A stretch of DNA of 32,000 bases from Candidatus Absconditicoccus praedator (GTDB lineage: Bacteria; Patescibacteriota; Gracilibacteria; Absconditabacterales; Absconditicoccaceae): positions 540,001-572,000 of the forward strand of contig NZ_CP054059.1 in NCBI RefSeq assembly GCF_021057185.1. Direction: 5' to 3'. A program made the position numbers and the translations under genes. Positions 1,437 through 31,960 of this stretch are shown here, piece after piece. Under the pieces are notes generated by a model. That model did no database searches. It was not told the origin of the DNA and saw nothing but the letters and a program-made list of their open reading frames with translations. Within the stretch, counting starts at the first letter, position 1, and every line of letters begins with the position of its first letter.

Positions 1437-3044
1437 TTAATCACATCTTACCCAGTAAACTTCATCTTCCTGAACTTCATACTCTCATATTTGATCTGCT
1501 AAATTATCTTCATCTATTCATTCAGAATAATCATATCCAAGCTGTCTTGGTGACACCTCAGCCACACTACAGTTATCTTCTATCACAGAAGACAAGATTT
1601 GTCCAGACTCAAATCACCTAATATTCCACATACTTTCAAAATCATTTTGTTTTTTTGTATCATCCTGTACCTTTACTTCTACTACTTGATCAGTAGATCC
1701 ATCATTTGTAAATCTATAAACATTACTTGTTCAATCATCCATTGATACAAATTCTTGTGAAGAATTATCCCAATTTTCAATAGTTATATAGTCTTCATAG
1801 TCAAATTCTTCTGGATATTCTTCAATATAAGCATAATGCCATTCTTCAGCAGGAATTTGAATATAATAAACTCAATCCATCACACAAACAGCATATCAGT
1901 CCTCTCAACATGGTTGATCTTCTCATTCTCAGCCTATTTCCTCTCATTCATCTTCTTCATCCTCTTCTTTTCAGTCTCCAAATCAGTCATTATATCATCT
2001 TTCATATCATTCCTCATAATTTTCTGGCTTATCATCTGGCACATAGTATGATTCTCTTTCCTCATTTCATTCTTCTTTATCATATTCACCATCTTCTTTA
2101 CCTGCCTTGTATCAATCATAATATTCCCATCAATCACTATATCACTCTTCGTATCACTCTCAATACTCATCCGATTTATTATCTGGTACATAGTACGATT
2201 CTCTTTCCTCATTTCATTCTTTTTTGTCTCATAGTCAGTCTGAAAATCAATCTTCATATCACTCTTCATTTGTTCATTCTCAGCCTATTTCCTCTCATTC
2301 ATCTTCTTCATCCTCTTCTTTTCAGTCTCCAAATCAGTCACTATATCATTTTTCATATCATTCCTCATAATTTTCTGACTTATCATCTGGCACATAGTAT
2401 GATTCTCTTTCCTCATTTCATTCTTCTTTATCATATTCACCATCTTCTTTACCTGCCTTGTATCAATCATAATATTCCCATCAATCACTATATCACTCTT
2501 CATATCACTCTCAATACTCATCCGATTTATTATCTGGTACATAGTACGATTCTCTTTCCTCATTTCAGTCTTTTTTGTCTCATAGTCAGTCTGAAAATCA
2601 ATCCTCATATCACTCTTCATTTGTTCATTCTCAGTCTCAACTATCAACTCAGTTAGAAGATTCATTAAACTTATACTTTCATAGTATTTTTTGTATTTCT
2701 AGAATTTTTTCTATTATATACTCAGCACGATTTTTTTCTATTCAAATTTTTCTCGACACTTCTGCAGAAGCATGTCATATTTCTTTATTTCTTTGCTTAT
2801 AATAATCCCTTATATTCAATAAATTTTCTATTTCTCTATCATATGCAGAAAAATCAAACATATTATTCTTCACCATAACATACAAACGATCTTTTATAAC
2901 TTCTTTTTCTTCTGAAGTTACCTGTCAAATATTAGGATTCAAGTCCAAATCTGAGTATGAAGAATAATCACTAAAATTAAATCAGTGCACTAATCAAAAT
3001 GACAATATCAACACTGAAAAGAAAAAAAATTTTTTTAAGTTCAT
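1437..3044 (-). CDS. Secreted hyper-acidic tandem-repeat protein (535 aa): signal peptide, helical N-region, 2 x 117-aa D/E/G/Y repeats, C-terminal Cys-containing domain
   Basis: ATG at 3044, signal peptide MNLKKFFFFSVLILSFGLVHG, open to TAA at 1437-1439 only with UGA=Gly. Length is divisible by 3, and the frame was checked from both ends through the repeats. The repeat unit reads EGTNEEGYEDGFSDGLGDKKEGNEERESYYVPDNKSDEYGEGYEEGYSDGWEYYDGYKAGKEDGEYDKEEGNEERESYYVPDDKPENYEEGYERGYNDGFGDGKEEDEEDEGEEIGG. Confidence 0.8.
1921..2634. repeat. Two near-identical tandem copies of a 351-bp unit (in-frame 117 codons), each with an internal sub-duplication
   Basis: agcctatttcctctcattcatc occurs at 1931 and again at 2282 (period 351). 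I saw only a handful of substitutions between the copies. The sub-motif attctctttcctcatttca occurs twice per unit. Confidence 0.95.
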
Positions 3045-9469: not shown

Positions 9470-10390
9470 ATGATTCACCTACATTGACATAGCCATTATA
9501 GCCTTCTTGAAGCCACTTGAAATCCATGAAAAATAGTAGAAAAAGCAAAAGAGCTAGGGATGTCAGCAATAGCAGTTACTGACTATCATGGAATGTACTG
9601 ATCTATAGAATTTTATGAAAATGCAGAAAAAAACTGAATAAAACCAATTTTATGAACAGAATTGTTTCTAAGTCTAGACCTACAAAACAAACATGAAAAA
9701 ACCACACCACAAAACATAGTACTAATTGCTAAAAATATTGATTGATACCAAAATTTATTGAAACTTGTATCATTTGCTCATACTACCTGATACAATCAAA
9801 AGCCAAGGATTGATTTTGAGACATTACAAACATTTAGCAAATGACTTATCTGAATAGTTTGATGAGAGAACAGCTTTTTAGGAAGTATGATACTTTCATG
9901 AGAAGAAGACAAAAAAATTGAAGATATTACAAAAAAACTAAATGAGATTTTTGAATGAGAAGTTTATTATGAAATAATGGCACAAGATGAGACAAAACTT
10001 AAAGAAACAAAAAAAATAAATCAAAAATTAATTGAGATTGCTTCATCTAATTGAACTCAACTGATTATATGAAATGATTATTCATACCCAGAAAAAACAG
10101 ATAAAAAAGCTTATGAAGTTTTATTATGCATTAAAGAAAACCAAAAATACACCAAATCATTTATACAATGAGATTATCACATAAAATCAGAAGAGGAAAT
10201 CAGAAAAATCATGAAAAAAAACAATTATGATGAAGAGAGCATAAATAAGATGATAGAAAACAATCACAAAGTAAGTGAAAAGATCGATTTGCAATTACCA
10301 TTATGACAAATATTATTTCCCAAATATCAGTCAGATGAAGATATTAAAAAATTATACGAAATACATAAAAATGATCTAATCACAAATTAA
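9470..10390 (+). CDS. dnaE: DNA polymerase III alpha (DnaE)-type PHP domain only, 306 aa, ends at TAA where the palm domain should begin
   Basis: MIHLHGHSHYSLLEATGNPGKIVEKAKELGMSAIAVTDYHGMYGSIEFYENAEKNGIKPILGTELFL...IVLIAKNIDGYQNLLKLVS...YYEIMAQDE...LIIGNDYSYPEKTDKKAYEVLLCIKEN...LPLGQILFPKY. This is the canonical DnaE N-terminus. TAA at 10388-10390 is followed by 18 nt and an unrelated GT2 gene. Confidence 0.8.
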
Positions 10391-13476: not shown

Positions 13477-14484
13477 ATGGAAAAAATATGAGGTTGACGA
13501 AGATGAAATATTGAAATATACAATCAAAAAAACAAAAAAATTGCCAGAAAAACCGCACTAAAATGAAAGGAATCTATAATTCAAAAAGAAATATTTATAA
13601 TCAAAAAATTAAATCAATACTGAATAAACTTTGTACCTCAAATACAATATACTTGAGAAAATTTTTTTGAGTATGAATTTATAGAGTGAATTCATTTTTC
13701 TGAAGCTTATGAAAATCAAAACAAAAACAAAAATTTGATGCTTGATTTATTGTATAAAGCTTATTGTCTTGATAGATGCTGAATAATACACTGAGAACTA
13801 ATGAGACCCTACAAAAATATAATTGTAGGGGAACAAAACAAAATCTATATAATAGATTTTGAAAGATGAAAATATGGTGACTTTTCTTGAAAGAATCTTA
13901 AATTACTTTCTCAGTGGATAAAAAATGAATGATTTTTGAGTATCAAAGATTTAAAAACAATTTGACAACTCAAAAATCCTGATGAAATTTATCAGTATAT
14001 CAAAAGAAAAATTAAAAAACCAAAATTATATTCACTATTGAGTATAATATTATGATTTGTAAGTTTGGATTTACTTACTAAATGGATTTTTTATAATAAA
14101 TCTATTGGCGAACAATTTATTTTCTTGAATCCAGCATTCAATGAATGAATTGCTCGATGAGTTCAGATTGATATGACAATTATTATGCTAATTAGTTTTA
14201 TTAGTTTTTTCGTTTTTTGGTTTGTATACAATAAGAACTGGATAAGCTGAACTGTTTTAATACTATTTGTAGCAGGAGCTTTATGAAACTTAATTGATAG
14301 ACTATTTCTATGATGAGTAAGAGATTTCATAATGATATGAGATTTTCCTATATTTAATATAGCAGATATTTATCTAAGTATAGCTATAAGTATCTTGATT
14401 TGGGAAGAAATAATTTTTCCAATAACTCACTATCTTTTGTACAGAAAGTGACATACTTGAAAGGACAAAACAAATAAATACTAA
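13477..14484 (+). CDS. lspA: Fusion protein: N-terminal small Bud32/RIO/LPS-kinase-like domain plus C-terminal lipoprotein signal peptidase II (335 aa)
   Basis: N-part: IGGGRRGNIEIY (G-loop-like), KIARK, GIIHGELMRPYKNIIVGEQNKIYIIDFERG (HGDL..N and DF-like motifs). C-part: four hydrophobic helices with GALGNLIDRLFLGGVRDFIMIGDFPIFNIADIYL (LspA signature). Single uninterrupted table-25 frame. Confidence 0.75.
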
Positions 14485-16318: not shown

Positions 16319-18517
16319 TTACTCTCTAGGAATCAAATATCTACTATTATAAAATGTTATATTTTTCAAAAATCCTCTAAACCATATAACATCTTCTCAA
16401 CTTACCTCTCACATGATAGAATCATAATTCTTAGAACCAGAAAACTCTGACCAGTTTCTATATCAAAAATCCATATAAGATGAATTATCGTCTATACTAA
16501 TCCACTTATTAAGCATATCATCATAATCATATACAAGCTGATTTATTATATACTCTACAAGATAATAATAATCCTGAGATATTCAAACTATATCATATAT
16601 ATATATTTTTTTTAGAGTATCAAGATGTAAATCTACTCAATTTATCTTTTCTTGGATACTAAGGTATTTATAATAAAGAAGAAATCAAAACAAAGTTTCT
16701 CTCAAAAATGCACAAATTCATATTATACTTTCTTTATTGTATCTTTTTTGAATATCAATCTTTTCATTATTTAATATATTTATAAAATCTTTCCAAACCC
16801 ATATATCAAAAGTATATATATTTTCTTTAATATTAGAAACATCTTTTTTATAAAAATGCTTGTACAAATGATTTTGATTTGTTTCTCAAATAAGTTCAAA
16901 AAAATCTTTATATAAACAATTTAATATTCATGTCTTTGAATACTTCACCATAGAAGAAATTTTTGAACCAAATTTTTCTTTGAAAAGATTAATAATATCT
17001 TTATTTTGCACAAATATTTTTATATCTTTTTGGTTTATGTCTTGAAATATTACTGTTAAAAAATTTTCATCAAATAATTTTAACAAAAATGGATTTGAAT
17101 AAGTTTGTTTGAATGTAGATCTATATGGCAAAGAGAATTTTTCTTTACCAGCTTTTACATTCTCAAATGCATATTTATAATAAAAAACATTTTTACTATA
17201 ATTATACAAAACACCTCCATAGAAAAACAATGAATCTTGATGCATTCAACTCAAAGATCTGTTTGTATTAAGTACACTTAAAAGGTTTCTTCTAAAAAGC
17301 TTTAAGAAAAAACTATCTCCTCTTCACACCCAAAATCATCACACAAAAGTTAGATAAAAATTTATAAGTTTTTCTGTTGCTACAGATTCTTTTTTTAACC
17401 TATCTGGTATTTTAACATTATCTGGATCATCTCATTCTCAAATACTTGACATAAGTTCATCAAGCTCATCATCTATTCCAGAACCTCAAGCTTTATTAAA
17501 CTTCCAAGAAATAAATCTTTTTATTCACTTAAAATAATTTTTCTTGAAAAGTCTATAATCCAAAAGATACACTAGAAAATCTTCTAAAACATCTTTATTT
17601 TTAAGGAAACTTGACATATAATTATCCAAAACATCTTTATCATAAATATTTTCAACCACAAGCTCTGAGATCTTATAAACATCCTCTCACTCAAAAAGAT
17701 ATCTAATCAAAATATCAGCGGGCAAAATAAATGGTATTATTTTCTTTTCGGTAGTTGATATCCTTGAAGATCTTGTATAAATATGATAATTTTTAATAAA
17801 ATCTAATGTTACTGCTTTTTTATTGCTTTTTCTTTGTTCATCATAAAATATCCGTTCATAATAATATTTTTCATCAATAAAATCATCTTCAAAAAATTTA
17901 TTAAGAGTTTTTGACAGGTTAAAAAGCATAAAAAATACTTGGATATTTTTTAGAACTTTTAATTTTATTTGTTGAATTGTATTTTCATCATATTTAAAAC
18001 CTGAATTTTTACAAACAAATAAGTAAGTTTGAAAAAACAGATCTATAAACCAAGAATAATTTTCTTTATCATCCGAATAAGGAAAAACTTTAATTCTTGC
18101 AAAAAAGATAAATACTATATAGTAAACAGTCAAAATAAAGTTAATAAAATACCTATGATCATATCATTTGAAAAAATTTCTTGTATAAATACTTACAACT
18201 AGAGAAACTACACTTCATATATTTGATGGAGAAAAAAACCTATATCAATTGAAGTTGGATACAACTCAATATGAATAATAATTATCTATTTCTTTAGGCT
18301 TCATAGAAGATCACTTTCCAAAACCAACTTTTACTTCAAAACTATCTAAGGACACATCAAAAAGATTTAACTTGAAGTTTTCTACTATTTTTCTATTTAC
18401 TACAGAAAAAAACTGTTTTGCAGAAACAAAACTTATAAAAACACTTGCTGGATTTATAGGCTGATTTATTACCTCATCAGGGAAAAGAGATATAAGAATT
18501 CTTTTAAAAAGCTTCAT
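16319..18517 (-). CDS. Large hypothetical protein (732 aa), Tyr/Phe/Lys/Asn-rich, at least one hydrophobic segment
   Basis: The three track fragments (18311-18517, 17687-18133, 16928-17245) are in one frame, joined by UGA-Gly codons into a single ORF ending in TAA at 16319-16321. No recognised motif. Confidence 0.7.
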
Positions 18518-18740: not shown

Positions 18741-19541
18741 TTAAGGCTGTTGCATTGGATCTATGTCTTGCTCATCTTGATCCTTTATTTCATGAATTTC
18801 TACTTCAAAATACATATTTTCTCAAGCCATTGGAGGATTGAAATCTACTATTACAATTCATTCATCGTCTCTAATTTCTGTTATCTCTCCAAACATTTGA
18901 CCAAAGTTTACAAACTCATCTTCTACTGGCTCCAAACCTGCTTGCTCAAAATATTCCATTGGAATTTCCTCTACAAGCTCTTCTTGATAATCTCAATATC
19001 ATTCATCTGGAGTAACTTCAAATTCTTTAACTTCTCATTCTTCCATTCAAAGAATTGCATCTTCAAAACCAGGAATCATTTGTCATGCACCAACTATAAA
19101 TTCCAATGGTTGATAAGGTCTATTTTCATCATATATACCAGCATCTTCAGCAACACTTTGTTCACTAGTATCAAAAACCTCACCATCTTCATCAGTACCA
19201 GTATAATCCAAAGACACAAGATGTCCTTCTTCTACATAATCATGATGATCAGGAGAAGACGGCATTTCCTGTTGCATTGCATCCTGCATTGCTTCTTCAT
19301 CCATCATATCTTCATCATCTATCATATCCTCTACATCTTCTTCCATCGCTTCTTCATCAGTCATATCCTCTTGCATCGCCTCCTCTTCTTCATAATCTTG
19401 TCATTCTTCATTATTTTGATTTTGTTGCTCAGTCTGATCTGAAGCATCTTGAGTTCAATTCATATCTTCTATATCTTCCATGCATCAATACAAACTAAAA
19501 CTTCAAAAAATTACTAAAGCTATTATCAATTGTTTTTTCAT
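18741..19541 (-). CDS. FKBP-type (SlyD-like) peptidyl-prolyl isomerase lipoprotein with long acidic/Met-rich linker (266 aa)
   Basis: MKKQLIIALVIFGSFSLYGC lipobox. Linker EEEAMQEDMTDEEAMEEDVEDMIDDEDMMDEEAMQDAMQQEM. FKBP core GHLVSLDYTGTDEDGEVFDTS...PLEFIVGAGQMIPGFEDAILGMEEGEVKEFEVTPDEGYG. Confidence 0.85.
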
Positions 19542-19683: not shown

Positions 19684-19974
19684 TTAGGGGTCTATTTTGT
19701 ATCAACCTCATTTTACTGTTTTTATGATTGTTTTGTCTATTTTTTTTCTAAGATTTGAAACATATACATCCAATTTTTTTTCATTTTCATATCAATCAAA
19801 TCACCAAGTATAGTTTATCAAATCTTCTCTAGACACCACTGCTCATACATTTTTCATCAACTTTTCAAGTATCAGAACCTCTTTATTAGTACATTTTTTA
19901 TTGTTTCAACTTCTTCATATATTCTTTTTTGATAAAAATTTTAGAATTTTTTCCATATTTTCTTTTTTTCTCAT
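19684..19974 (-). CDS. Stand-alone OmpR/PhoB-type winged-helix DNA-binding domain protein (96 aa, no receiver domain)
   Basis: CTNKEVLILEKLMKNVGAVVSREDLINYTWGFDGYENEKKLDVYVSNLRKKIDKTIIKTVKGGGYKIDP aligns along its length with the C-terminus of the response regulator at 21394-22041 (FTNKEISLIECLLDHFGTAVSRTDIIDYIWGGDIFDNDNKLDVYISNIRRKLGKGIIKTVKGFGYKIEK). Confidence 0.8.
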
Positions 19975-20113: not shown

Positions 20114-21289
20114 TTATTCTAGAAGGTCTTCTAACATTCAATCAAGTCATCAGTCCATATCAGCTTCTTCTGCTGTAGAAACATCTCATCACAATTCTTC
20201 TATTCTAGACTCAAAAGAGTTTTGAAGATAAATAAACACAGATGTATACAAATATTGATTTTGAACTGACAAGTTAAGATCATCTATTTTATTAATAACA
20301 TCTTCCAAATCTTCATATCTTTCTTCAAGCAAATCAAGATTATCAGTATTATTCACAAAATTATCTATTTTTGATTGAATTGTATTAAACTCTTCATAGT
20401 TTTCTCATACAAGATTGTCTATATTTTCATCAACAATATTTTCTCTTTCTTCTATTGATTTAGAAAACTTTTCCGATAGGTTAACTCATTGATCAAGACT
20501 CACATCTTCTACTTGATAATCTTCTTCTGCTCATTCTACATCCATTTCAACTTGTTCTCATTCATCCTCATAACCTTCTTCTACTCATTCTGCTTCTACA
20601 TCCATATCATATTCTTCTTCGTTATAATCTTCCTCTGCTCATTCTACAGATTCATATCACTCAAACTGTACTTCTCAGTTCCACCAACCAAGTTCTATAT
20701 CTCAAACATACTGATTATCTCCATCATAATATTCAACTCTAGCAGTATTAGACCCTATCCAGTCAATATTACCAACTTCAAACTGTTCAGTATAATTAGG
20801 TTGATTTTCTGATAAATCATTTATATATGAGTTTATATGATCATTATATATTTCAGTAAAGTTTAATTCTTCAATATATTCATCTGTATATATGTCTTCA
20901 GGCGACTCTCATTCATCTTCATAATCTTCTTCTACTCATTCTACTTCTACATCCATATCATATTCTTCTTCGTTATAATCTTCCTCTACTCATTCTACGT
21001 CCATTTCAACTTGTTCTCATTCATCTTCATAATCTTCTTCTACTCATTCTACTTCTACATCCATATCATATTCTTCTTCGTTATAATCTTCCTCTGCTCA
21101 CTCTACGTCCATTTCAACTTGTTCTCATTCATCTTCATAATCTTCTTCTACTCATTCTGCTTCTACATCCATTTCTTGATCAAACATTTGTATTTCTTCT
21201 TCATAATCAGAATAATCTTCTTCTGCATTAACATAACTTAATGCACTTATCAACGCAATTATAGATAAAAAGGAAATAAATTTTTTCAT
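20114..21289 (-). CDS. Secreted hyper-acidic repeat protein (391 aa): signal peptide, 36-aa E/D/V/M/Y repeats on both sides of a Trp/Tyr-rich core, helical C-terminal region
   Basis: MKKFISFLSIIALISALSYVNA signal peptide. Repeats EGVEEDYEDEGEQVEMDVEGAEEDYNEEEYDMDVEV. Core NFTEIYNDHINSYINDLSENQPNYTEQFEVGNIDWIGSNTARVEYYDGDNQYVGDIELGWWNGEVQFEGY. Open only with UGA=Gly; TAA at 20114-20116. Confidence 0.8.
20509..20653. repeat. Distal block (about 1.3 copies) of the 108-bp acidic coding repeat
   Basis: Encodes VEGAEEDYNEEEYDMDVEAEGVEEGYEDEGEQVEMDVEGAEEDYQVED, nearly the same DNA as 20905-21175. Confidence 0.85.
20905..21175. repeat. About 2.5 tandem copies of a 108-bp (36-codon) coding repeat
   Basis: tcatcttcataatcttcttctactcattctacttctacatccatatcatattcttcttcgttataatcttcctct... 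recurs with period 108. Confidence 0.9.
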
Positions 21290-21361
21290 AGCAAACTTGG
21301 TTATCATCTAAAATAGTTTAAGTTTCATAGTCCTTTTAATTAAGGACTAATTATTAAGTGT

Positions 21362-21393: not shown

Positions 21394-22041
21394 TTATTTT
21401 TCAATTTTATATCAAAATCATTTCACTGTTTTTATAATCCCTTTACCAAGTTTTCTTCTAATATTGGATATATAAACATCAAGTTTATTATCATTATCAA
21501 AAATATCTCATCACCAAATATAATCAATTATATCTGTCCTTGAAACAGCAGTTCAAAAATGATCTAACAAACACTCAATCAAAGAAATTTCTTTGTTAGT
21601 GAATTCTACTTTTTCTCAATTTTTATACACCTTTTTTTGATTTAAATATATCACTACATCTTCAAATTCAAATTTATCAACCTGATTTGTTCTTTCAAGT
21701 AGCCTTTTTACTCTTGCTAATAGTTCTTCAAAATCAAATGGTTTCACAAGATAATCATCCGCTCACAAGTCAAATCATTCTAATTTATCTTCAAGCTGAT
21801 GCTTGGATGTTGTTATAATGATTGGAATATTAGTTTTTTCTCTTGTATACTCACAAAAATCCATTCAATCTCATCAAGGCAACATCAAATCCAACAAAAC
21901 AAGATTATATTTATTTTTTTTGAAAAGCTTTTTAGCAACTTCAAGATCATCTGCTATATCAGAATCATATCAATTTGCTTGTAGCATTTCTTGTATAGCA
22001 TTAGCAATTGTTTTATTATCTTCAACTATTAGTATTTTCAT
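21394..22041 (-). CDS. OmpR-family response regulator (receiver plus winged helix, 215 aa)
   Basis: MKILIVEDNKTIANAI...YNLVLLDLMLPGGDGMDFC...IPIIITTSK...GADDYLVKPFDFEELLARV, then the wHTH ending TVKGFGYKIEK. Confidence 0.9.
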
Positions 22042-23287
22042 TTTTATTAAATTTTATAGTAAATTTAGTTCAGTTTCAAACTTCCGAACTTACATCAACA
22101 TCATAATCCAACAAATCAATTATTTGCTTCACAATATAAAGTCACATTCAAAAACTTTTTATATCAGTTTTTGCTGAGTCTTCTTGATAAAAACTATGCC
22201 ATATTTTTTGTAAGTTTTCCGATCTTATTCATATACCATCATCTTCAATTTCAAAAAAGTTGTTATCAAAATAGATTTTTATATTTCAATTGTTTTTTGT
22301 ATATTTAAAAGCATTTTCTACAAGATTTTTTACAAGAACTTCAAAAAGTTGATAATTCGAACTCAAATATATATCATCATGTATTTTTTTCTCTATATTT
22401 ATTTTTTTATTAGTATAAAAAGATTCAATTTTTTGTATACAACTGTTAACCAAATTGGAAGCATTAAACTTTTCTATAGAAAAATCAGTTGATGATGACT
22501 GTATCTTGGTAAGAAACAATAAGTTTTCTATTAGAGAATTCATATTTTTAATGGTTGACTTTATCTGTGAAATTTCCTGCTTTGCACCATATTTCATAGA
22601 AATCAAATCCAGTTGAGAACTTATTTCCATAAGTGGAGTCTTTATTTCATGAGATGCATTTGATATAAAATTTTTCAATGATTTTGCCTGAACATATATC
22701 TTATTCATTGACTTATTTATTGTATCAGAAAGTATTTTTATCTCATCGTCATAAGGTCAATCCATACTTATAGGATTATTAAGATTTTCTATATCTAAAC
22801 TTTTTGTTTGTGAAACAAGTGACCTAAGTCTTTTTAGAGATGTTCTCACAAAATAGTGAGAAACAAAATAAGCCAACACTATAAAAAATATTATCATATA
22901 AAAATTTATAAGCAAAAGGTTCAACTGCGAAAATATATGGTAAGTGACAACTGAATATGACAAATTTTCTCAAGAAATAGAATATAATACATAATCATTA
23001 TCAATTCTTGATATGTTAAATAAAACATCATTTTCTAATATCTCCTTAGCCAAAACGTTATCCAGACTTATTGTATCTCAAGGTCAAGAATGACGAAGAT
23101 GTTTGGGAACCATAGGATCAAAACCAAATAGCTGAAACACAGTAGACCTTTCTTCAAGAAAAGCTTTTTCTTGACTATACCATTGAGAAAAATAAAAAAA
23201 GTTTACTATTATACCAAACAAAAATAGTAATATCGTTGTAAACAAAGTGAATTTTAAACTTATTTTTGTAGATGTTGTTAGATTCAT
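22016..23287 (-). CDS. Sensor histidine kinase (2 TM, HisKA, HATPase_c; 423 aa)
   Basis: The three track fragments are in one frame joined by UGA-Gly. TM helices near the N-terminus and at LLLINFYMIIFFIVLAYFV. H-box FISNASHEIKTPL, N-box LVENAFKYT, G-boxes EIEDDGIGI and GMGLYIVKQI. The 3' end overlaps the RR start by 26 nt. Confidence 0.9.
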
Positions 23288-24046: not shown

Positions 24047-25138
24047 CTAAGAAGATTTTTTAGAAAACTTTTTTGTTTTTAATATTTTTTGCACAACTTC
24101 TCTAAGAATACCAACTTCTATAGGTGACAATCAACAAACATTAAACCTTTTTTGCTTTTCTTTAATATATCATTGTATTAGTATAGCTGTAGGCTTATCA
24201 ATAAAATAAACAACACTTCCTACTTGTACATAATGTGTATTGTTTTTTTTATCAGTTCACAAAGAAAATTTCATATTTTGCTTCTGAGTTGTTTTTGGAA
24301 AAGATCTAGAGACTATATCAATTAATTGAGATTTTAATCACTCAAAATCAGAGTCTAAATCTATTTTGTTCAAAATTTTATTGGTTTTTTCTAGTTGATT
24401 TTGCAAAAAAGCCAAAACATAATCATTATTTAAATATTCTGGATTTAATTCTGGATATCTCTTTCTAAGCCTATCCAATCATCTCTTTTTTATAGTTTCT
24501 AAATGTTGAACATTAGATGAAGACAGCTCTCAAGTATGAAAATTAGGAGTTTTATTTTTCTCCAATTCCATTATCTCTAAAGCAGTTTCTTCATCTACAT
24601 AATGAAAAAGTCATCAAATTTTATAAAGCTTACAATCGGGATACCTTGGGAAACTCAATCATTGCTGCTTAATTATATTCTCAGAATACTTTTCATTCAA
24701 ACTTTTTCTTCAATCTTCTCACTTTTTTTCTGCAGATTTTTTTAGATTATAAACCTCCTTTTTAGCATCCCATCTTCCTGGTAAAATATTTGGATATTGT
24801 TGCTTTAGCCTAGAAAGTCATGCTTCTTTTATTTTTTTTAATTCAACTAAACTCAATCAAAAAGACCTACTTATAGTAAGATCTCTTCATTTATTTTTTT
24901 CCCTATATTTTTCTAATATGTCTTTAGCAGTTTGATCATCTACATAATGCCAAAGTCATGCTATTTTATGAAATTTTACTCACGGATAGTTTGGAAACTC
25001 TATTCATTGACAAAGATGATAATATTCTTCATTGGCAGCCTTTTTACTTAAAGCATTTTTTAATCTTTGCTTCAAACTATTGTCTTTTTTAACTCTTTGA
25101 TTATAAAACTCATCTAATCTTGATTTAATAGCTTCCAT
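24047..25138 (-). CDS. Hypothetical protein (363 aa) with an internal duplication of about 80 aa
   Basis: Table-25 ORF from ATG 25138 to TAG 24047-24049. QGIEFPNYPGVKFHKIAGLWHYVDDQTAKDILEKY...LKKIKEAGLSRLKQQYPNILPG is repeated as QGLSFPRYPDCKLYKIGGLFHYVDEETALEIMEL...LETIKKRGLDRLRKRYPELNPE. Confidence 0.65.
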
Positions 25139-26811: not shown

Positions 26812-29385
26812 CTATTTTCTAGGCTTTCTTCTCTCTCGTGTAGTAGATTTTGTTTCAAGCCTTTTTTTATCGTGACTTCTATTTATTTGATTAATCTTTC
26901 ATTCAAGCTTAGTTTTTATTTCATTTATTTTTCTGGAAGTTTCTGGATTGGGATAATAAAAATTTCCTCACACAATAATATGTCAATTCTTTTCTACAAT
27001 CCTCCTCACATACACATCCACCAATAATTCTTCTCATAATATATTTAAATCTAATCTTACCAAATCATTTTCTATAATATCAGAATCAACTCACTCTTTT
27101 TTTTCTAATCAAAATCAAATTCAAGCTGAACTTAAATCTAAAATTACTCACTTCCAATTACCATTTATTCAAACTGGCATTAATAAGGAATAACCTAAAG
27201 GAACCTTTTCTACTTCAACTCAATCCAAACTAGAAACATCAATAAATTTCTTATCTCTAATTTGTTCTATATTACTTAAAGCATCTTTTATATAACCTAT
27301 CCTATTTTCTAAACTAAGTTCTTTTCATCATCTATATAAAAACTCAACTCTATGATACTGTCTTTCTGTTCAAAAATCCTCCTTATCTTCTATAACCAAA
27401 GTTTCTAGCTCTTCTCTAAGATTTTTTATTTCATATCTAAAACTAGAGCTTAGTGTTTTAGAAATTTTTTTAGGAAAGTATGGAGTTCATCTTCTAACTG
27501 CATTTAAATAGGATCCATAATTATCTAAACCAACTCTTCAAGACGTATAATTTCATAATAAATAATAAATAAAATTAATATCACTACTATTGTTTTTAAT
27601 GTTTATATATCCATCTGATTTAACTCTATTTTCTGCATCTTCAATTTTTTTGTTTATTTCTTCTCTTCTATTTTTTAAATTACTCAATTTTTTTTGTTTA
27701 TCAAATACTGATGTTTGTAATTTTTTAAATAAACCCAATATTAATTGTCTTTTTGAGTGTGGAAGATCTCTAAGATTTACTTCTCATTTTTTATATTTTT
27801 CAAAAAAACTAATTGCATTTTGAACTTCTTTAGAAGATTTTATTTTTTCTAAATCGGCATTTATTTCTGATATTTCTCTATTTATCTCTTCTAATTCTAG
27901 TTGCATTGAATTGAGTTCTTCTTGCGACATAAGTCTAACCTTATCTACAGAAAGCATTATATTTGTGGTTAATCATTCAGTCATGTTTCATCCACTTAAC
28001 ATTCAATTATTATCCATATGTAAAGATCCTGAACAATGAATATTATTTCAATAGCTGCTTCAAATAGATATATTATCTCAAATTATTATACAATTTACAG
28101 CTTTCCTTACTTCAACATCAGTTCAAATTATTATAGAATTCTCAGCATACTCAACTTTTGTTTTTCAATAAACACATCTAACTTCAGAATTTATTAACTT
28201 TCATTTAACCATTAAAGACCCTCCAATATTTTCAATGTCTCATCAAACAGAATCCTCAAACAAAATAATCTTTCATCAATTTGACTTCAAAAATCAATTT
28301 AACTTTCCTCACTTTAACACTATATTTTTTCATTCTATTCAATATCAATTTTCTACAGTTCAAAATTGATGAAAATTTTCTGCATCTATTTGAAGTATTC
28401 AGGTTTTGGGTCATATATTTGTGTTATTTATACATTCTGAAGTTATACTTATTTTTCATTTTGAATCTTTTGATATAAATCAAGCAGTCTTAGCAACAAG
28501 ATACTCAACTCAATCAACTACTTCTATATTAGTTCATTTTCAAGAAAATCTTCTCAAGTTGTGATCCTTTCAATGGACCTGCCTAAGTTCCGTTCAAAAA
28601 ACAGTCATTCAAGGATATCAAATTGTTGGTGGAACCTTTCTAATTAATCTTGGATCAGACAGATCTGTTATTTGAGGAATAGGATTCTTAGCCCTTTTCA
28701 TGTCAACTTTTCAATCTTCTCTATCTAAGGGAGAAAAGTCTTTTTCTATGTCTATTAAATGTTCAAAGTATGCATCTTCTCAATTTTTAGGCTGAATTCA
28801 TTCAGCTATAATATCAACAAATTGATTATTTTTTCATGTCTGTACTTGCTCTTCAATCTCTTGAACTGATTTATCTATTTTTTCAAAATCTAAACCAAAA
28901 ACTACTCAATACTCCAAAAGTATTGAAAATAATTTATCTTTTTCTATTGGACTTTCAATATCCTTGCGCTTCATTCATCAGTCTTTTACTATTTTTCAAA
29001 AATTAAACAATATTTTTCAGCTTTTTTCTTTTAATCTTTTTTGGTATGACTGCTTTTCTTCTAAATCAAATTTTTTAAAACTTTTTCACAATTTAATACT
29101 GTCTTCTGAGACATTTTTATTAACTATTATATCTAGTATACTTTCAAAATTCTCATCTATTCACTCTATAAAAAATCATTCTTCAAAAATTTTTTTAAGA
29201 TAATTCAACAAGGACTTTTTTGATAAATCTGAAGAAAATTCAAAAAAAACACCTTCATTACTAAAAGTAATTGGCAATCAAAGTTCATCTTTTAGCATAT
29301 CAGAAATGCTGTTACTATTATCAGAAACTTTAGAAGAAAGCGTTTCTTCACCACTTCTTATTGTATTTTTAGCATTATCAGTCAT
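26812..29385 (-). CDS. Large FapA/DUF342-like protein A (857 aa): N-domain, Gly-rich beta-helix region, coiled coil, C-terminal PilZ-like barrel, basic tail
   Basis: Single table-25 ORF (more than 70 UGA-Gly). FapA_N-like LFSILLEYGVVFGLDFEKI. PPTIGYPGMTVFGTELRQVHGKDHNL...GKGTNIEVVDGVEYLVAKTAGFISKDSKGKISI, then repetitive G-x-hydrophobic turns (GYGIEGKNIVLKGGKLNGFLKSNGGKIILFEDSVGGDIENIGGSLMVKGKLINSEV...). Coiled coil MSQEELNSMQLELEEINREISEINADLEKIK. C-terminus ERQYHRVEF ... GVILDLSSAGIGFGL ... VRRIVEKNGHIIVGGNF. Confidence 0.6.
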
Positions 29386-29449
29386 CAGTTCAAAATAAAT
29401 ATAAATTACAAGACAATATATATACAAAAAAACAAATGTCAATCATATT

Positions 29450-31675
29450 TTATTTCGTTTTTTGAGTTTTTATTTGTCTTATTTTTTGATCTAGTAATCA
29501 CTTTTTTTCTTTTATTCTATCTCTTGAAAGTTGACTTAATTCAAAAAAATTTCATCCTACAAACATACATCAGTTTTTTATATCGGTCCACCTCACATAT
29601 ATATCTAACATAAAATCTTCTCATAAGATTGAAAAATCAACCATAATATTATCGTGTTTTATAATTTCCTTTTCCAAACCTTCTTCATACAAAAGACAAC
29701 ATCATATTCAAGTAATACTAATATTGAAAACCAGTCATCTCCACTGTCAATTTATTACTATTGGTATTAAAATTTTAGGAGACTCTATTGTTCTTCAAGT
29801 CAAAGATGAAAAAGCTCAACTTAATCAAACAGGTATATCATCCTCTTGAAACTCCTCACTATAAAACCTATCTAATAAAGGCTTTATAGCTTTTGATTTA
29901 TCCTCTAAAGTTGTATCTTTAGTAACATTCATTAAAAATTCAGATCTTGGAGAGTATTTATCATCTCTTACAACTCAAAAAATTTCTCTATTTTCTACAG
30001 ATTTTTGCATTAATGCTTCTCTTAGTGTAGAATGGTTGACATCAACTTTACTTGTATATTTATCTTTTTTTCTGGTAGGCATTGGAGGTATCAGCATTCT
30101 AGTACTTTTTAACAACCTCTCATAATTATTAATAGTAACTCTATAAGGAAAAACATTATTTTTAATTAAATATGATATTAATGCTATATTATTAGAATAT
30201 ATTCATTCCACAAAAATTTTAGGGTCTCATAAATTTTCAATATTTCTTTGTGACTCACTTAGTCTTTCAACTAAAGAATCATAATACCTTCTATATTTTT
30301 TATAATCCTCTTCTAATGGTAAATATTCCTTTTGTATTCTTGCAATAAGAAATCTTGCTTGCTCTTTTCATGATGAAGATAGGCTCTTTAAATAGTTTTG
30401 ATCTTTTCTAAAAAGTTCAAATATTTTTTTTCATTTTTGTATTTCTTCATCATTTTCTAACTCTTCTAATTTTCTTTTTTTTAATACCAATTTTTTTCTG
30501 ACTAAGTTGAGTATTTCTTCTGTTTTTATGGCATCTGCAGATTGATTATCAGATATTGATAAAACAGGAACTAATATGTTTGTTGAATCATCAAGAATTA
30601 TTCTTTCTTCAGAGTTAATAGATCTTCATTTTGGTTTATCAGTATTTATAGATTGAATTATAATTTCTATTCAATGTATTTTAGACTCAGAACAATTAAC
30701 TAAAGTTATCTTATCTCCAACTATAACACAATTTATTGCATTTTTTATGGTAATATTAGATCACACAATAGTTGAATTTTCTGCATAGTTTACAACTATC
30801 TGTCAATCAATACTTCTCAAAAATGAGTTTGAAATCCTTCATCTTGTTATTATAGCTCAAGAATCACTTACAATCTCTCACATACAAACACTTCAAGATT
30901 CTATTCTTCAAGAATTAGATTGAATACTTCAGTAAACAATTCATTTTTTTACTGTTAAATTTGTACAGTAAACTTTTTGATTTGATTCTATATTTCAACT
31001 AACACACAAATCATCACTATCAATTATAATTTCTCAGTATCTATCTTTTATATCTCACTCGTAATAAGGTTCATCTATTACATGCACTACTCAATTACCA
31101 TCCTCGAACAAATAACCAATTTTCTCTGCAACTAATAAAACTTCTCAGTTATTTTCTATAATTTTTGTTCAATTTCAACACTTAGATTCCAATTCCAATT
31201 TTGTATCTTTTACATCTAACTCTGAGATAAGTTCTCAAAAAATATTATACACTTTTCAAGAATTCTCTGGTAACCTAATTATAACAGGATCATTCAAGTC
31301 CGAAATTTGTCAAACCTTTAATATTGACTTAGTTGGTAATCCACTAGTAGCATACTCAGTTCATTGTATTTTTGGAGATGTGTTTTTTTCATATACAAAA
31401 TGAAAAGAAGTTTGTTCACTAAAATTTTGAGGTGAGGCTATAATGATACTTCAATCCTTCATTTCTGATATATAACTTATATTTTCATACTCAAATCAAC
31501 ATACAATTCACTTATCTATCATTACAAGGAATAATATGTCCTTAGAAAAAACATAGCCTGATTTATTAAATTGCTCCACATCAAAGTATGCAAACTCAGT
31601 ATCTGAGTATATTAAATTCTCATAAAAGCTTATTTCTTCTGGATCATAAGATAATATATTATCTCATATTTTCAT
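29450..31675 (-). CDS. Large FapA/DUF342-like protein B (741 aa), paralog of protein A, with C-terminal PilZ-like barrel
   Basis: ATG at 31675 (TAA 2 codons upstream in frame) to TAA at 29450-29452. ILFLVMIDKGIVCGFEYENI (FapA_N-like), a beta-helix-like region (GIVYGSIQSNSGRIESGSVCMGEIVSDSGAIITRGRISNSFLRSIDGQIVVNYAENSTIVGSNITIKNAINCVIVGDKITL), the coiled coil LVLKKRKLEELENDEEIQKGKKIFELF, and C-terminal GLVFNISITGIGCCL...VRWTDIKNGCMFVGGNFFEL. Confidence 0.6.
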
Positions 31676-31729
31676 TTCTGAAACAACTTTTATTCAATCC
31701 ATAATATTTACAAGCAATCTTTTATTTAT

Positions 31730-31960
31730 ATTATGTATATATACTCATTTTCTAAAAAGTTCTGACAAAAAAGTTAAAACATCAAATTTTGAAGAATTAT
31801 TTTGAGAACATATAAATATTCCTTCTTCATTTATATAAAAATCTAATGACAAAACCCCCAAAAGATCATTTAGACTATCAGAAATTTTTTCATTATCTAA
31901 TTTTGATTCAGCAAATTCCTCCTCTCTTTTATCAAGTGAGGTCATGTATTTGTAATTCAA
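31730..31960 (-). CDS. Small ORF (about 76 aa) resembling the extreme N-terminus of protein A; possibly a detached N-terminal module of protein B
   Basis: TTG at 31960 (preceded by AAGAGGG 9 nt upstream) or ATG at 31945. ...SDSLNDLLGVLSLDFYINEEGIFICSQNNSSKFDVLTFLSELFRKG compares with A residues ...SDMLKDELGLPITFSNEGVFFEFSSDLSKKSLLNYLKKIFEEG. The 3' end (in-frame TAA near 31730) was read by eye and is uncertain. Confidence 0.35.

Follow-up and report, generated by a model that had tools for sequence, protein, structure and literature searches.

The DNA analyzed here is a 32-kb window from the genome of the predatory CPR bacterium Candidatus Absconditicoccus praedator (1.13 Mb, 26% GC), which is read with translation table 25, where UGA encodes glycine. 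Under table 11, the window has four open reading frames (ORFs) of at least 150 aa; with UGA read through, it has 38 and its coding is dense, in agreement with the initial annotation's statement that the ORFs at this locus are hidden without table 25. Two of them, genes A and B, are co-oriented and separated by a 64-nt spacer of the length first claimed (Table 1). In the alignment of their products, UGA is paired with GGN-encoded glycine 12 times, with UGA 48 times and with tryptophan zero times, ruling out UGA as a tryptophan codon; it supplies 61 of the 77 glycine codons in A and 44 of the 53 in B. Gene A had been delimited exactly, and its 857-aa product is identical to P0001, which NCBI names 'flagellar assembly protein A'. 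Gene B had been given as 741 aa ending at position 31675, an internal Met having been taken as its start. The corrected product has 831 aa, its 90 added N-terminal residues align with the N-terminus of A, and an independent gene call in another assembly also yields 831 aa (L004, 7441..9936). The word 'giant' was an overstatement for proteins of ~850 aa. The region's best sigma-70-like match, TTGACA-16-TATATT at 29442..29415, is a consensus match only and lies in the spacer, and gene A may therefore have its own promoter; counted over the whole region, such matches are no more numerous than expected from shuffled sequence.

Table 1. Genes, domains and motifs of the A/B locus, in window coordinates.
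Feature	Position	Strand	Description or basis
Gene A	26812..29385	-	857 aa, table 25; FapA-family with C-terminal PilZ-type domain; ORF and translation
Gene B	29450..31945	-	831 aa, table 25; paralog diverged from A, domains in the same order
B-A spacer	29386..29449	-	64 nt
A residues 1-140, N-terminal region	28966..29385	-	Local phmmer domain scan
A residues 145-306, FapA_N domain	28468..28953	-	PF20250, E 1.2e-26, 93.5 bits
A residues ~307-480, predicted beta-solenoid with G/N-punctuated turns	27946..28467	-	BLASTP to P0003
A residues ~481-591, two heptad-rich helices	27613..27945	-	Heptad scan
A residues 592-670, linker or cap between hairpin and PilZ module	27376..27612	-	Family alignment
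A residues 671-857, PilZ-type module	26815..27375	-	AF2 model, Foldseek, Pfam
A R675-Q-Y-H-R679, RxxxR motif	27349..27363	-	Motif and profile alignment
A residues 684-733, insert between RxxxR arm and first barrel strand	27187..27336	-	Family alignments
A D750-L-S-S-A-G755, [D/N]xSxxG motif	27121..27138	-	Aligned to DFSDGG in the PilZ domain of E. coli BcsA
B residues ~657-831, PilZ-type module	29453..29977	-	A/B and family alignments
B R660-DDKYSP-R667 in place of RxxxR	29945..29968	-	Alignment
B NISITG, residues 741-746, intact	29708..29725	-	Motif

A and B align end to end, with 27.7% identity over 867 columns (E = 2e-69), which is far beyond chance and bears out the proposal of tandem paralogs sharing their order of elements. 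In both proteins, an N-terminal region is followed by FapA_N, a predicted beta-solenoid, a probable helical hairpin and a divergent PilZ domain. Neither has a transmembrane segment (maximum hydropathy 1.25 in A and 1.44 in B) and, as judged from their sequences, these FapA/DUF342-family paralogs are soluble and cytoplasmic. The N-terminal region of A has no Pfam match, and phmmer finds it also in B, in the other long forms and in a few 650-aa relatives.

The homology to FapA, guessed at from motifs, is well supported. With a gathering cutoff of 27 bits, FapA_N reaches 93.5 bits in A and 54 to 92 bits in all seven long homologs, and a BLASTP alignment to a canonical FapA_N+FapA protein of 471 aa (P0003, E = 5e-14) covers residues 147-439 of A, extending through the predicted solenoid. 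In B, the region homologous to that of A scores 17.3 bits, below the cutoff. The Pfam model of the FapA beta-solenoid (PF03961) matches neither A nor B, and exceeds its cutoff of 31 in three full-length homologs (P0007, 38.3 bits; P0009, 38.0 bits; P0016, 35.4 bits). Conservation across the family is highest in a block of the predicted solenoid of A, YAENS...A.NC.IIG, in which E415, A429 and N431 are family-invariant; the strings quoted in the initial annotation, VEYAENSIIIGTDVEVRKAVNCIIIGDNISI and VNYAENSTIVGSNITIKNAINCVIVGDKITL, are this block. After the solenoid, each protein has two heptad-rich helices free of proline and glycine (residues 474-525 and 552-591 in A, 469-499 and 544-572 in B), in agreement with the coiled coil suggested earlier. 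PDB sequence matches to this part of A are only weak ones to coiled coils, such as keratin and occludin, and the PF03961 alignments of the homologs extend through the post-solenoid helical region; it is probably a helical hairpin or coiled coil. The linker or cap that follows is poorly conserved in the family alignment, and has neither a Pfam match nor a confident structure model.

PilZ is the fold classically associated with receptors of the second messenger c-di-GMP. In the C-terminal module of A, an RxxxR arm and an insert of ~50 aa precede a six-strand beta-barrel, which is followed by a long C-terminal helix and a basic tail. In an AF2 model built from a shallow alignment (14 rows, some of them mistranslated with table 4), the barrel and C-terminal helix have pLDDT values of 80-95, and the arm and insert fall below 50, so that the geometry of the ligand site is modeled at low confidence. 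When this C-terminus was compared with the PDB using Foldseek, the best 36 matches were all PilZ domains (Alg44, BcsA, PP4397, MrkH, YcgR, MotI, PlzD, PlzA and MapZ), with E-values down to 1.1e-4, probabilities of 1.00 (0.99 for MapZ) and target-normalized TM-scores of 0.57-0.68 for stand-alone PilZ-domain chains. A family profile searched against the PDB found the BcsA PilZ domain as its three best matches, aligned on DxSxxG. The fold was modeled for A only, and we extend it to B from their 37% identity in the PilZ module.

The Pfam PilZ profile (gathering threshold 22.5 bits) matches 8 of 11 family C-termini, with a best E-value of 2.2e-5, and the C-terminus of P0004 is natively above threshold at 25.2 bits. 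The full native A protein scores 16.1 bits and its C-terminal fragment alone 20.1 bits, both below threshold because the insert parts RxxxR from the barrel. Deleting the insert in silico raises A to 25.1 bits, above threshold, with RQYHR in register. Native B has no match, and insert-deleted B matches only profile positions 20-95, the barrel core, at 14.2 bits. Profile matches and fold thus both uphold the PilZ-like barrel suggested from motifs, and on the evidence of the model the C-terminal module of A is a divergent PilZ domain, overlooked by routine annotation.

The C-terminal motifs noticed at the outset were found in both proteins: DLSSAG and VGGNF in A, NISITG and VGGNF in B. Once the insert is deleted, R675 of A lies at PilZ profile position 3 and the RxxxR motif occupies positions 3-7; all 11 family C-termini have R679. 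Position 750 is D or N in all family members, and S752 and G755 are conserved in at least 90%. Overall identity within the module is only 15-37% across the family, and R679, S752, G755 and the D/N at 750 are among its most conserved positions. Canonical PilZ domains have ~20-30 residues between RxxxR and [D/N]xSxxG. This spacing is ~70 residues in A, 73 in B, ~40 in P0005, P0006 and P0009, and ~25 in the P0016 clade. The long spacing in A and B is caused by the lineage-specific insert, which family alignments place in A, B and P0004, and which has ~50 aa in A, 15 aa in other subfamily members and none in the P0016 clade. The first arginine is off its canonical spacing in P0004, P0007, the P0016 clade and B. 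RxxxR itself is absent from B, and therefore no more than one of the pair resembles a competent receptor.

The FapA-PilZ architecture defines a small subfamily, monophyletic in our phylogeny (bootstrap support 100%), and the PilZ-type domain is missing from ~140 of the best 150 relatives. Besides Absconditicoccus, the carriers of the architecture are other Gracilibacteria-type MAGs with recoded UGA and 'Deltaproteobacteria' MAGs with the standard code and 58-59% GC; the architecture is not CPR-specific. Every other carrier has a single copy, and the tandem pair is found in Absconditicoccus alone. As a new domain combination, a FapA body with a previously unannotated PilZ-type end is modestly interesting. 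The homologs examined have no conserved gene neighborhood that would hint at the output. The window and the next 7 kb (~39 kb of the 1.13-Mb genome) contain no GGDEF, EAL or HD-GYP genes and no flagellar or pilus genes. The initial annotation had called a second-messenger-responsive scaffold unexpected in reduced CPR genomes, a claim made weaker by the diguanylate cyclases reported from ultra-small CPR MAGs (PMC9938205).

Starting from the domain architecture, PilZ fold, motif content and phylogenetic distribution demonstrated above, the best explanation of the whole, to which we assign a probability of about one half, is that A and B are FapA-PilZ paralogs of which A is a predicted c-di-GMP receptor and B is ligand-blind, with a non-flagellar output. 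The prediction for A comes from its canonical RQYHR and DLSSAG motifs and their conservation in the family. Its RxxxR arm would be tethered to the barrel via the ~50-aa insert and, by analogy to multidomain PilZ receptors, bound c-di-GMP would hold the arm tightly against the barrel and turn the PilZ module relative to the FapA body. Such a reorientation would alter the oligomerization, localization or partner binding of A. B has lost RxxxR and seems to have evolved more quickly than A across all its domains, and we infer that it would most likely be a ligand-blind partner or competitor of A, probably acting through the solenoid or hairpin. Since the lineage has no flagellum, the output would not be flagellar assembly; more likely, it would be the placing or assembling of another envelope or cell-pole structure, such as an attachment site, type IV pili or the division apparatus.

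The PilZ-fold domain of A and B may instead be a ligand-independent protein-protein adaptor, as is the non-binding PilZ of Xanthomonas, making both proteins constitutive scaffolds without second-messenger input, which we consider possible though on the unlikely side. This reading is consistent with the missing RxxxR in B, the irregular spacing of the first arginine in several family members, the canonical motif spacing broken by the insert, zero c-di-GMP turnover genes within ~39 kb, a strongly reduced genome of 1.13 Mb, and non-binding PilZ structures, such as 3ph1, among the weaker Foldseek matches. However, the c-di-GMP-contacting residues are among the most conserved of a fast-evolving domain, the RxxxR of A is textbook and in register with the PilZ profile, and the closest fold matches include many receptors with c-di-GMP bound. 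The same conserved residues, being canonical c-di-GMP contacts, argue against a pocket that takes another nucleotide or ligand, with its specificity retuned by the insert and the variable arginine spacing. To our knowledge, ligand-binding PilZ domains bind c-di-GMP, and we judge a change of ligand very improbable, even with an unusual split between arm and barrel, a R...R spacing that varies in the family, and no diguanylate cyclase seen in the ~39 kb covered.

B might also be a decaying duplicate without a function of its own, so that A alone matters. B is the most divergent family member, with 16-26% identity to all others and the longest branch; its FapA_N signal is weak (17.3 bits), its RxxxR is lost, and no ortholog of B was found in other genomes. 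Yet its 831-codon ORF is unbroken at 26% GC, where TAA and TAG stops accumulate fast, it is found in two independent assemblies, and every domain is kept in order, with the barrel, NxSxxG and GGNF conserved. The intact ORF and its presence in two assemblies speak for selection on B, and we judge decay very improbable. That A and B are genuine flagellar assembly factors, as Vibrio FapA is at the flagellated pole, would fit their FapA_N homology and the NCBI product name. According to references listed in PMC6877527, Vibrio FapA acts in flagellar assembly and has dephosphorylated EIIA-Glc as an interaction partner; from the title of a paper cited there, it is recruited by the landmark protein HubP; a Gracilibacteria study also lists 'pilus and flagella assembly' annotations (PMC11452946). 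However, Vampirococcus, an absconditabacterium of the sister genus, has neither flagellar genes nor flagella (PMC8080830), neither the ~39 kb covered (window plus 7 kb) nor the surroundings of the homologs examined include a flagellar gene, and the product name was carried over from a domain model, not from experiment. The 'flagellar assembly' label is misleading for A and B, and a flagellar role is barely credible.

Building further on the predicted receptor A and its ligand-blind paralog, a bolder version, which we hold to be a long shot, is that FapA-PilZ is a new type of c-di-GMP switch, with its RxxxR arm parted from the barrel by an inserted element, that drives a non-flagellar landmark scaffold. 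A could then read c-di-GMP taken from the cytoplasm of the prey as a signal for feeding or attachment that sets polarity, division or attachment, with B as its ligand-blind partner. If so, an epibiotic 'vampire', possibly without diguanylate cyclases of its own, would sense the c-di-GMP of its prey through A.

Compared with FapA/DUF342 proteins (PF20250 + PF03961; for example, those of Vibrio vulnificus and V. cholerae, FapA VCA1085), A is alike in its FapA_N domain (93.5 bits) and in being alignable over residues 147-439 with the canonical 471-aa FapA, and both proteins are alike in having a predicted beta-solenoid followed by a probable helical hairpin and in being cytoplasmic, without a transmembrane segment. 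In contrast, A and B are ~200-400 aa longer, carry an extra 140-aa N-terminal region and a C-terminal PilZ-type domain, and have PF03961 below threshold. Unlike that of Vibrio FapA, their lineage is non-flagellated (sister genus, PMC8080830), and they are not known to have an EIIA-Glc or HubP context. A flagellar brake of the YcgR/MotI type was rejected: neither A nor B has a PilZN or YcgR Pfam match, the N-terminal body is FapA, and the lineage is without a flagellum (PMC8080830).

As in canonical PilZ receptors (PF07238: Alg44 4rt0, BcsA, PP4397, YcgR, MotI/DgrA, PlzA, MrkH), the module has a beta-barrel and a C-terminal helix, with RxxxR and [D/N]xSxxG in A and only the latter in B. YcgR and PlzD share its placement: PilZ closes a multidomain protein at the C-terminus, and the linker between domains contains the RxxxR arm. 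Unlike canonical PilZ domains, that of A has a ~50-aa insert, a motif spacing of ~70 aa instead of 20-30 and a native score below the Pfam threshold, B is without RxxxR, and a FapA body takes the N-terminal place of PilZN/YcgR-N, a glycosyltransferase or HlyD. Like Xanthomonas PilZ, a non-binding (type II) PilZ adaptor, B keeps the fold without the full set of ligand motifs, and a protein-protein adaptor role is possible; unlike Xanthomonas PilZ, B still has NxSxxG and carries a large FapA body, and A retains both motifs.

Candidatus Absconditicoccus praedator carries two adjacent paralogs, A and B, that join a FapA-like body to a C-terminal PilZ-type module. For A, the coordinates and length reported in the initial annotation agree with the ORF. 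For B, it had taken an internal methionine as the start and arrived at 741 aa; the N-terminal stretch omitted in this way aligns with A, and a gene called independently on a Logan assembly is likewise 831 aa long. The two proteins align end to end (27.7% identity, 867 columns, E = 2e-69), and the strings and motifs quoted from them earlier are all present. Neither A nor B has a transmembrane segment, and two heptad-rich helices follow the repeat region in both. The 64-nt spacer between the genes carries the region's best sigma-70-like match (TTGACA-16-TATATT), which is a consensus match only, and no intrinsic terminators were found around the pair.

Coordinates of the paralogs and of the other features discussed (window positions unless a contig is named)
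Feature	Position	Strand	Length (aa)
Gene A	26812..29385	-	857
Gene B	29450..31945	-	831
Kinase-like/signal peptidase II protein	13477..14484	+	335
PHP domain protein	9470..10390	+	306
Winged-helix protein	19684..19974	-	96
Response regulator	21394..22041		
Histidine kinase	22016..23287		
Acidic repeat protein	1437..3044	-	
Acidic repeat protein	20114..21307	-	
Acidic repeat protein	18741..19541	-	
Large ORF	16319..18517	-	732
Large ORF with internal duplication	24047..25138	-	363
TPR and FapA-PilZ (P0016) genes, contig L007	5475..9749		601 (TPR)

Under table 11 the window (26% GC) contains four ORFs of 150 aa or more, versus 38 when UGA is read through. UGA encodes glycine: the A/B alignment pairs UGA with GGN-encoded glycine 12 times, with UGA 48 times and with tryptophan 0 times, and about 80% of the glycine codons in each gene are UGA. 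Many database relatives are the same type of protein mistranslated with table 4, containing 5–7% tryptophan and 0.4–1.9% glycine. Such mistranslation lowers profile scores and conceals domains such as PilZ. The affected entries in public collections include P0002, P0004–P0006, P0009 and P0010, and A and its table-4 twin are placed in separate 90% clusters. We corrected tryptophan to glycine in these relatives for our own analyses; the AF2 alignment kept the raw table-4 mistranslations.

The FapA homology proposed from motifs holds for A, which scores 93.5 bits against Pfam FapA_N (cutoff 27); B scores 17.3 bits. The FapA beta-solenoid model (PF03961) has no direct match in A or B. Residues 147 to 439 of A align with a canonical 471-aa FapA_N+FapA protein (E = 5e-14), and PF03961 scores above its cutoff in three full-length homologs. 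Among 1.84 billion representatives, an exhaustive HMMER search returned 782 relatives, mostly FapA-type proteins of ~650 aa; an NCBIfam search gave no meaningful match.

Against Pfam PilZ, the native C-terminal module of A scores 16–20 bits, under the 22.5-bit cutoff, and that of B gives no match. Of the 11 family C-termini, 8 match (best E-value 2.2e-5), and one natural homolog, P0004, exceeds the cutoff (25.2 bits). When the family profile was compared with PDB sequences, the BcsA PilZ domain occupied the top three places, aligned on DxSxxG, at an E-value of only 0.2. A phmmer search of the PDB with the C-terminus of the compact member P0016 found nothing meaningful, and profile searches of a word-indexed protein database recovered one clade's fragments or the query only, linking no annotated PilZ proteins. 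The AlphaFold model of A residues 734–857, which rests on a 14-row alignment, is a confident barrel with a C-terminal helix (pLDDT 80–95). The segment bearing the ligand motif RxxxR (the arm) and the insert that follows it fall below pLDDT 50, so that their geometry is not modelled, and a single-sequence model of residues 590–857 was unusable (pLDDT 37). The PilZ assignment, at first a guess, was borne out by a Foldseek comparison of the A model with the PDB: the top 36 matches are all PilZ domains, including Alg44, BcsA, PP4397, MrkH, YcgR, MotI, PlzD, PlzA and MapZ, with a probability of 1.00 (0.99 for MapZ) and target-normalised TM-scores of 0.57–0.68 for stand-alone PilZ-domain chains. Because the Pfam signal, the modelled barrel and the PilZ-only top matches coincide, we consider the predicted PilZ fold of A settled, and by sequence homology it carries over to B.

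Both PilZ c-di-GMP ligand motifs, RxxxR and [D/N]xSxxG, occur in A (RQYHR at 675–679; DLSSAG at 750–755). Within the PilZ-type domain, where family members share only 15–37% identity, R679 never varies, at least 90% of members keep S752 and G755, and position 750 holds D or N throughout. The motifs of A lie ~70 residues apart, and an insert of ~50 aa, common to A, B and P0004, separates the arm from the first barrel strand; the insert is ~15 aa long in other members and absent from the P0016 clade. With its insert deleted in silico, A scores 25.1 bits against Pfam PilZ, over the cutoff, in an alignment that begins with R675 at profile position 3; therefore, RxxxR is in the canonical register. 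B has R660-DDKYSP-R667 in place of RxxxR, and its insert-deleted form matches the barrel core only. Judged by these motifs, A resembles a competent c-di-GMP receptor, though one whose arm is unusually split, whereas B does not.

We give a probability of about 0.5 to a mechanism in which ligand binding at the interdomain arm would reorient the PilZ module against the FapA scaffold, B would be a partner blind to the ligand, and the outcome would be non-flagellar. The main competing explanation, a ligand-independent adaptor role, we rate as less likely. Should c-di-GMP turnover be encoded in the genome, the two proteins would join a short list of candidate effectors in a cultivated CPR predator. 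To our knowledge, there is almost no biochemistry of FapA proteins, and a subfamily that carried its own second-messenger sensor would help to reveal the function of the FapA body.

The window's 32 genes encode housekeeping functions, secreted proteins with acidic repeats and a single histidine kinase/OmpR pair; none is a GGDEF, EAL, HD-GYP, flagellar or pilus gene. Outside the window, upstream of B, are Sua5/TsaC and resolvase-like genes in divergent orientation, followed by more housekeeping genes. No gene neighbourhood is conserved between the window and homologous loci L001–L003, and the contexts of four further homologs all differ; one of these homologs has HDOD-HD and PAS-kinase genes close by. 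On contig L007, the TPR gene ends 4 nt before the standard-code P0016 gene and, because of this short gap, the two genes probably share a transcript. Some ~1.5 kb further upstream of the TPR gene lie genes for a PilS-like kinase and a sigma-54 activator (a PilS/PilR-like pair). They are the sole sign of a regulatory setting linked to type IV pili, and other loci do not conserve it.

Several other window genes deserve mention. One encodes an unusual fusion of a C-terminal signal peptidase II domain (Peptidase_A8, residues 190–310, 72.6 bits) to ~190 N-terminal residues with protein-kinase-like motifs (HGELMRPYKNIIV...IIDFERG) and no Pfam match. The stand-alone PHP domain protein (144 bits) is similar to the N-terminal part of DNA polymerase III alpha, and an unrelated glycosyltransferase gene follows it; its gene may represent a dnaE-like gene that has been split or truncated. 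The OmpR-type winged-helix protein (Trans_reg_C, 72.9 bits) lacks a receiver domain and is paralogous to the C-terminus of the full response regulator, which adjoins the histidine kinase. Three proteins with signal-peptide-like N-termini bear extremely acidic tandem repeats (for example, GNEERESYYVPD...EGYSDG and EEDYEDEGEQVEMDVEG); one is fused to FKBP and the two others have no Pfam matches. Both large ORFs have zero Pfam matches, and the shorter shows by eye an internal duplication (YPGVKFHKIAGLWHYVDDQTA and YPDCKLYKIGGLFHYVDEETA).

Among the best 150 of the 782 relatives, the PilZ module is present in only nine 50%-identity clusters, plus two further loci. Its carriers include UGA-recoded MAGs (L001 and L002, 27% GC, labelled 'Candidatus Peribacteria', and L008) and standard-code MAGs of 58–59% GC (L003, labelled Deltaproteobacteria, and L009). 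PilZ-bearing forms are monophyletic (NJ bootstrap 100%), as are the recoded ones (98.5%). The tandem pair is found only in Absconditicoccus (two assemblies), with a single copy at all other loci. B has a long branch that emerges basally in the recoded clade, apart from A, and a sister relationship of the two was not recovered (bootstrap 1%); the insert common to A, B and P0004 suggests that this placement is long-branch attraction. A metagenome scan with the A+B profile gave no matches, and a further scan yielded a single short standard-code contig.

The NCBI protein 100% identical to A (Candidatus Absconditicoccus praedator, 1.13-Mb contig) is named 'flagellar assembly protein A', a label that is spreading into flagellum-less CPR genomes and is not to be taken literally. 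The sister genus Vampirococcus has neither flagellar genes nor flagella (PMC8080830), and its supplements contain no GGDEF, PilZ or FapA terms. The family name derives from Vibrio FapA, a flagellar assembly protein with dephosphorylated EIIA-Glc as a binding partner (PMC6877527); by the title of a paper cited there, it is recruited by the landmark protein HubP. A metaproteogenomic study of Gracilibacteria includes annotations for 'pilus and flagella assembly' and speculates on flagella-mediated adhesion (PMC11452946). These flagella annotations may stem from this family's name, and the label could lead astray metabolic reconstructions in which Gracilibacteria are credited with 'flagella assembly'. 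Some ultra-small CPR MAGs are reported to encode diguanylate cyclases (PMC9938205). In Saccharibacteria papers, 'PilZ' is a pilin name and does not denote the domain.

In the precomputed Pfam annotations, all subfamily members carry FapA domains only, and database annotation gives no sign of the architecture that joins a FapA/DUF342 scaffold to a PilZ receptor. A literature search found no joint mention of DUF342 and PilZ and, at the level of titles and abstracts, no such fusion in the seven papers that name both FapA and PilZ. The FapA and PilZ modules themselves are well known; what is new is the hidden PilZ domain and its split arm.
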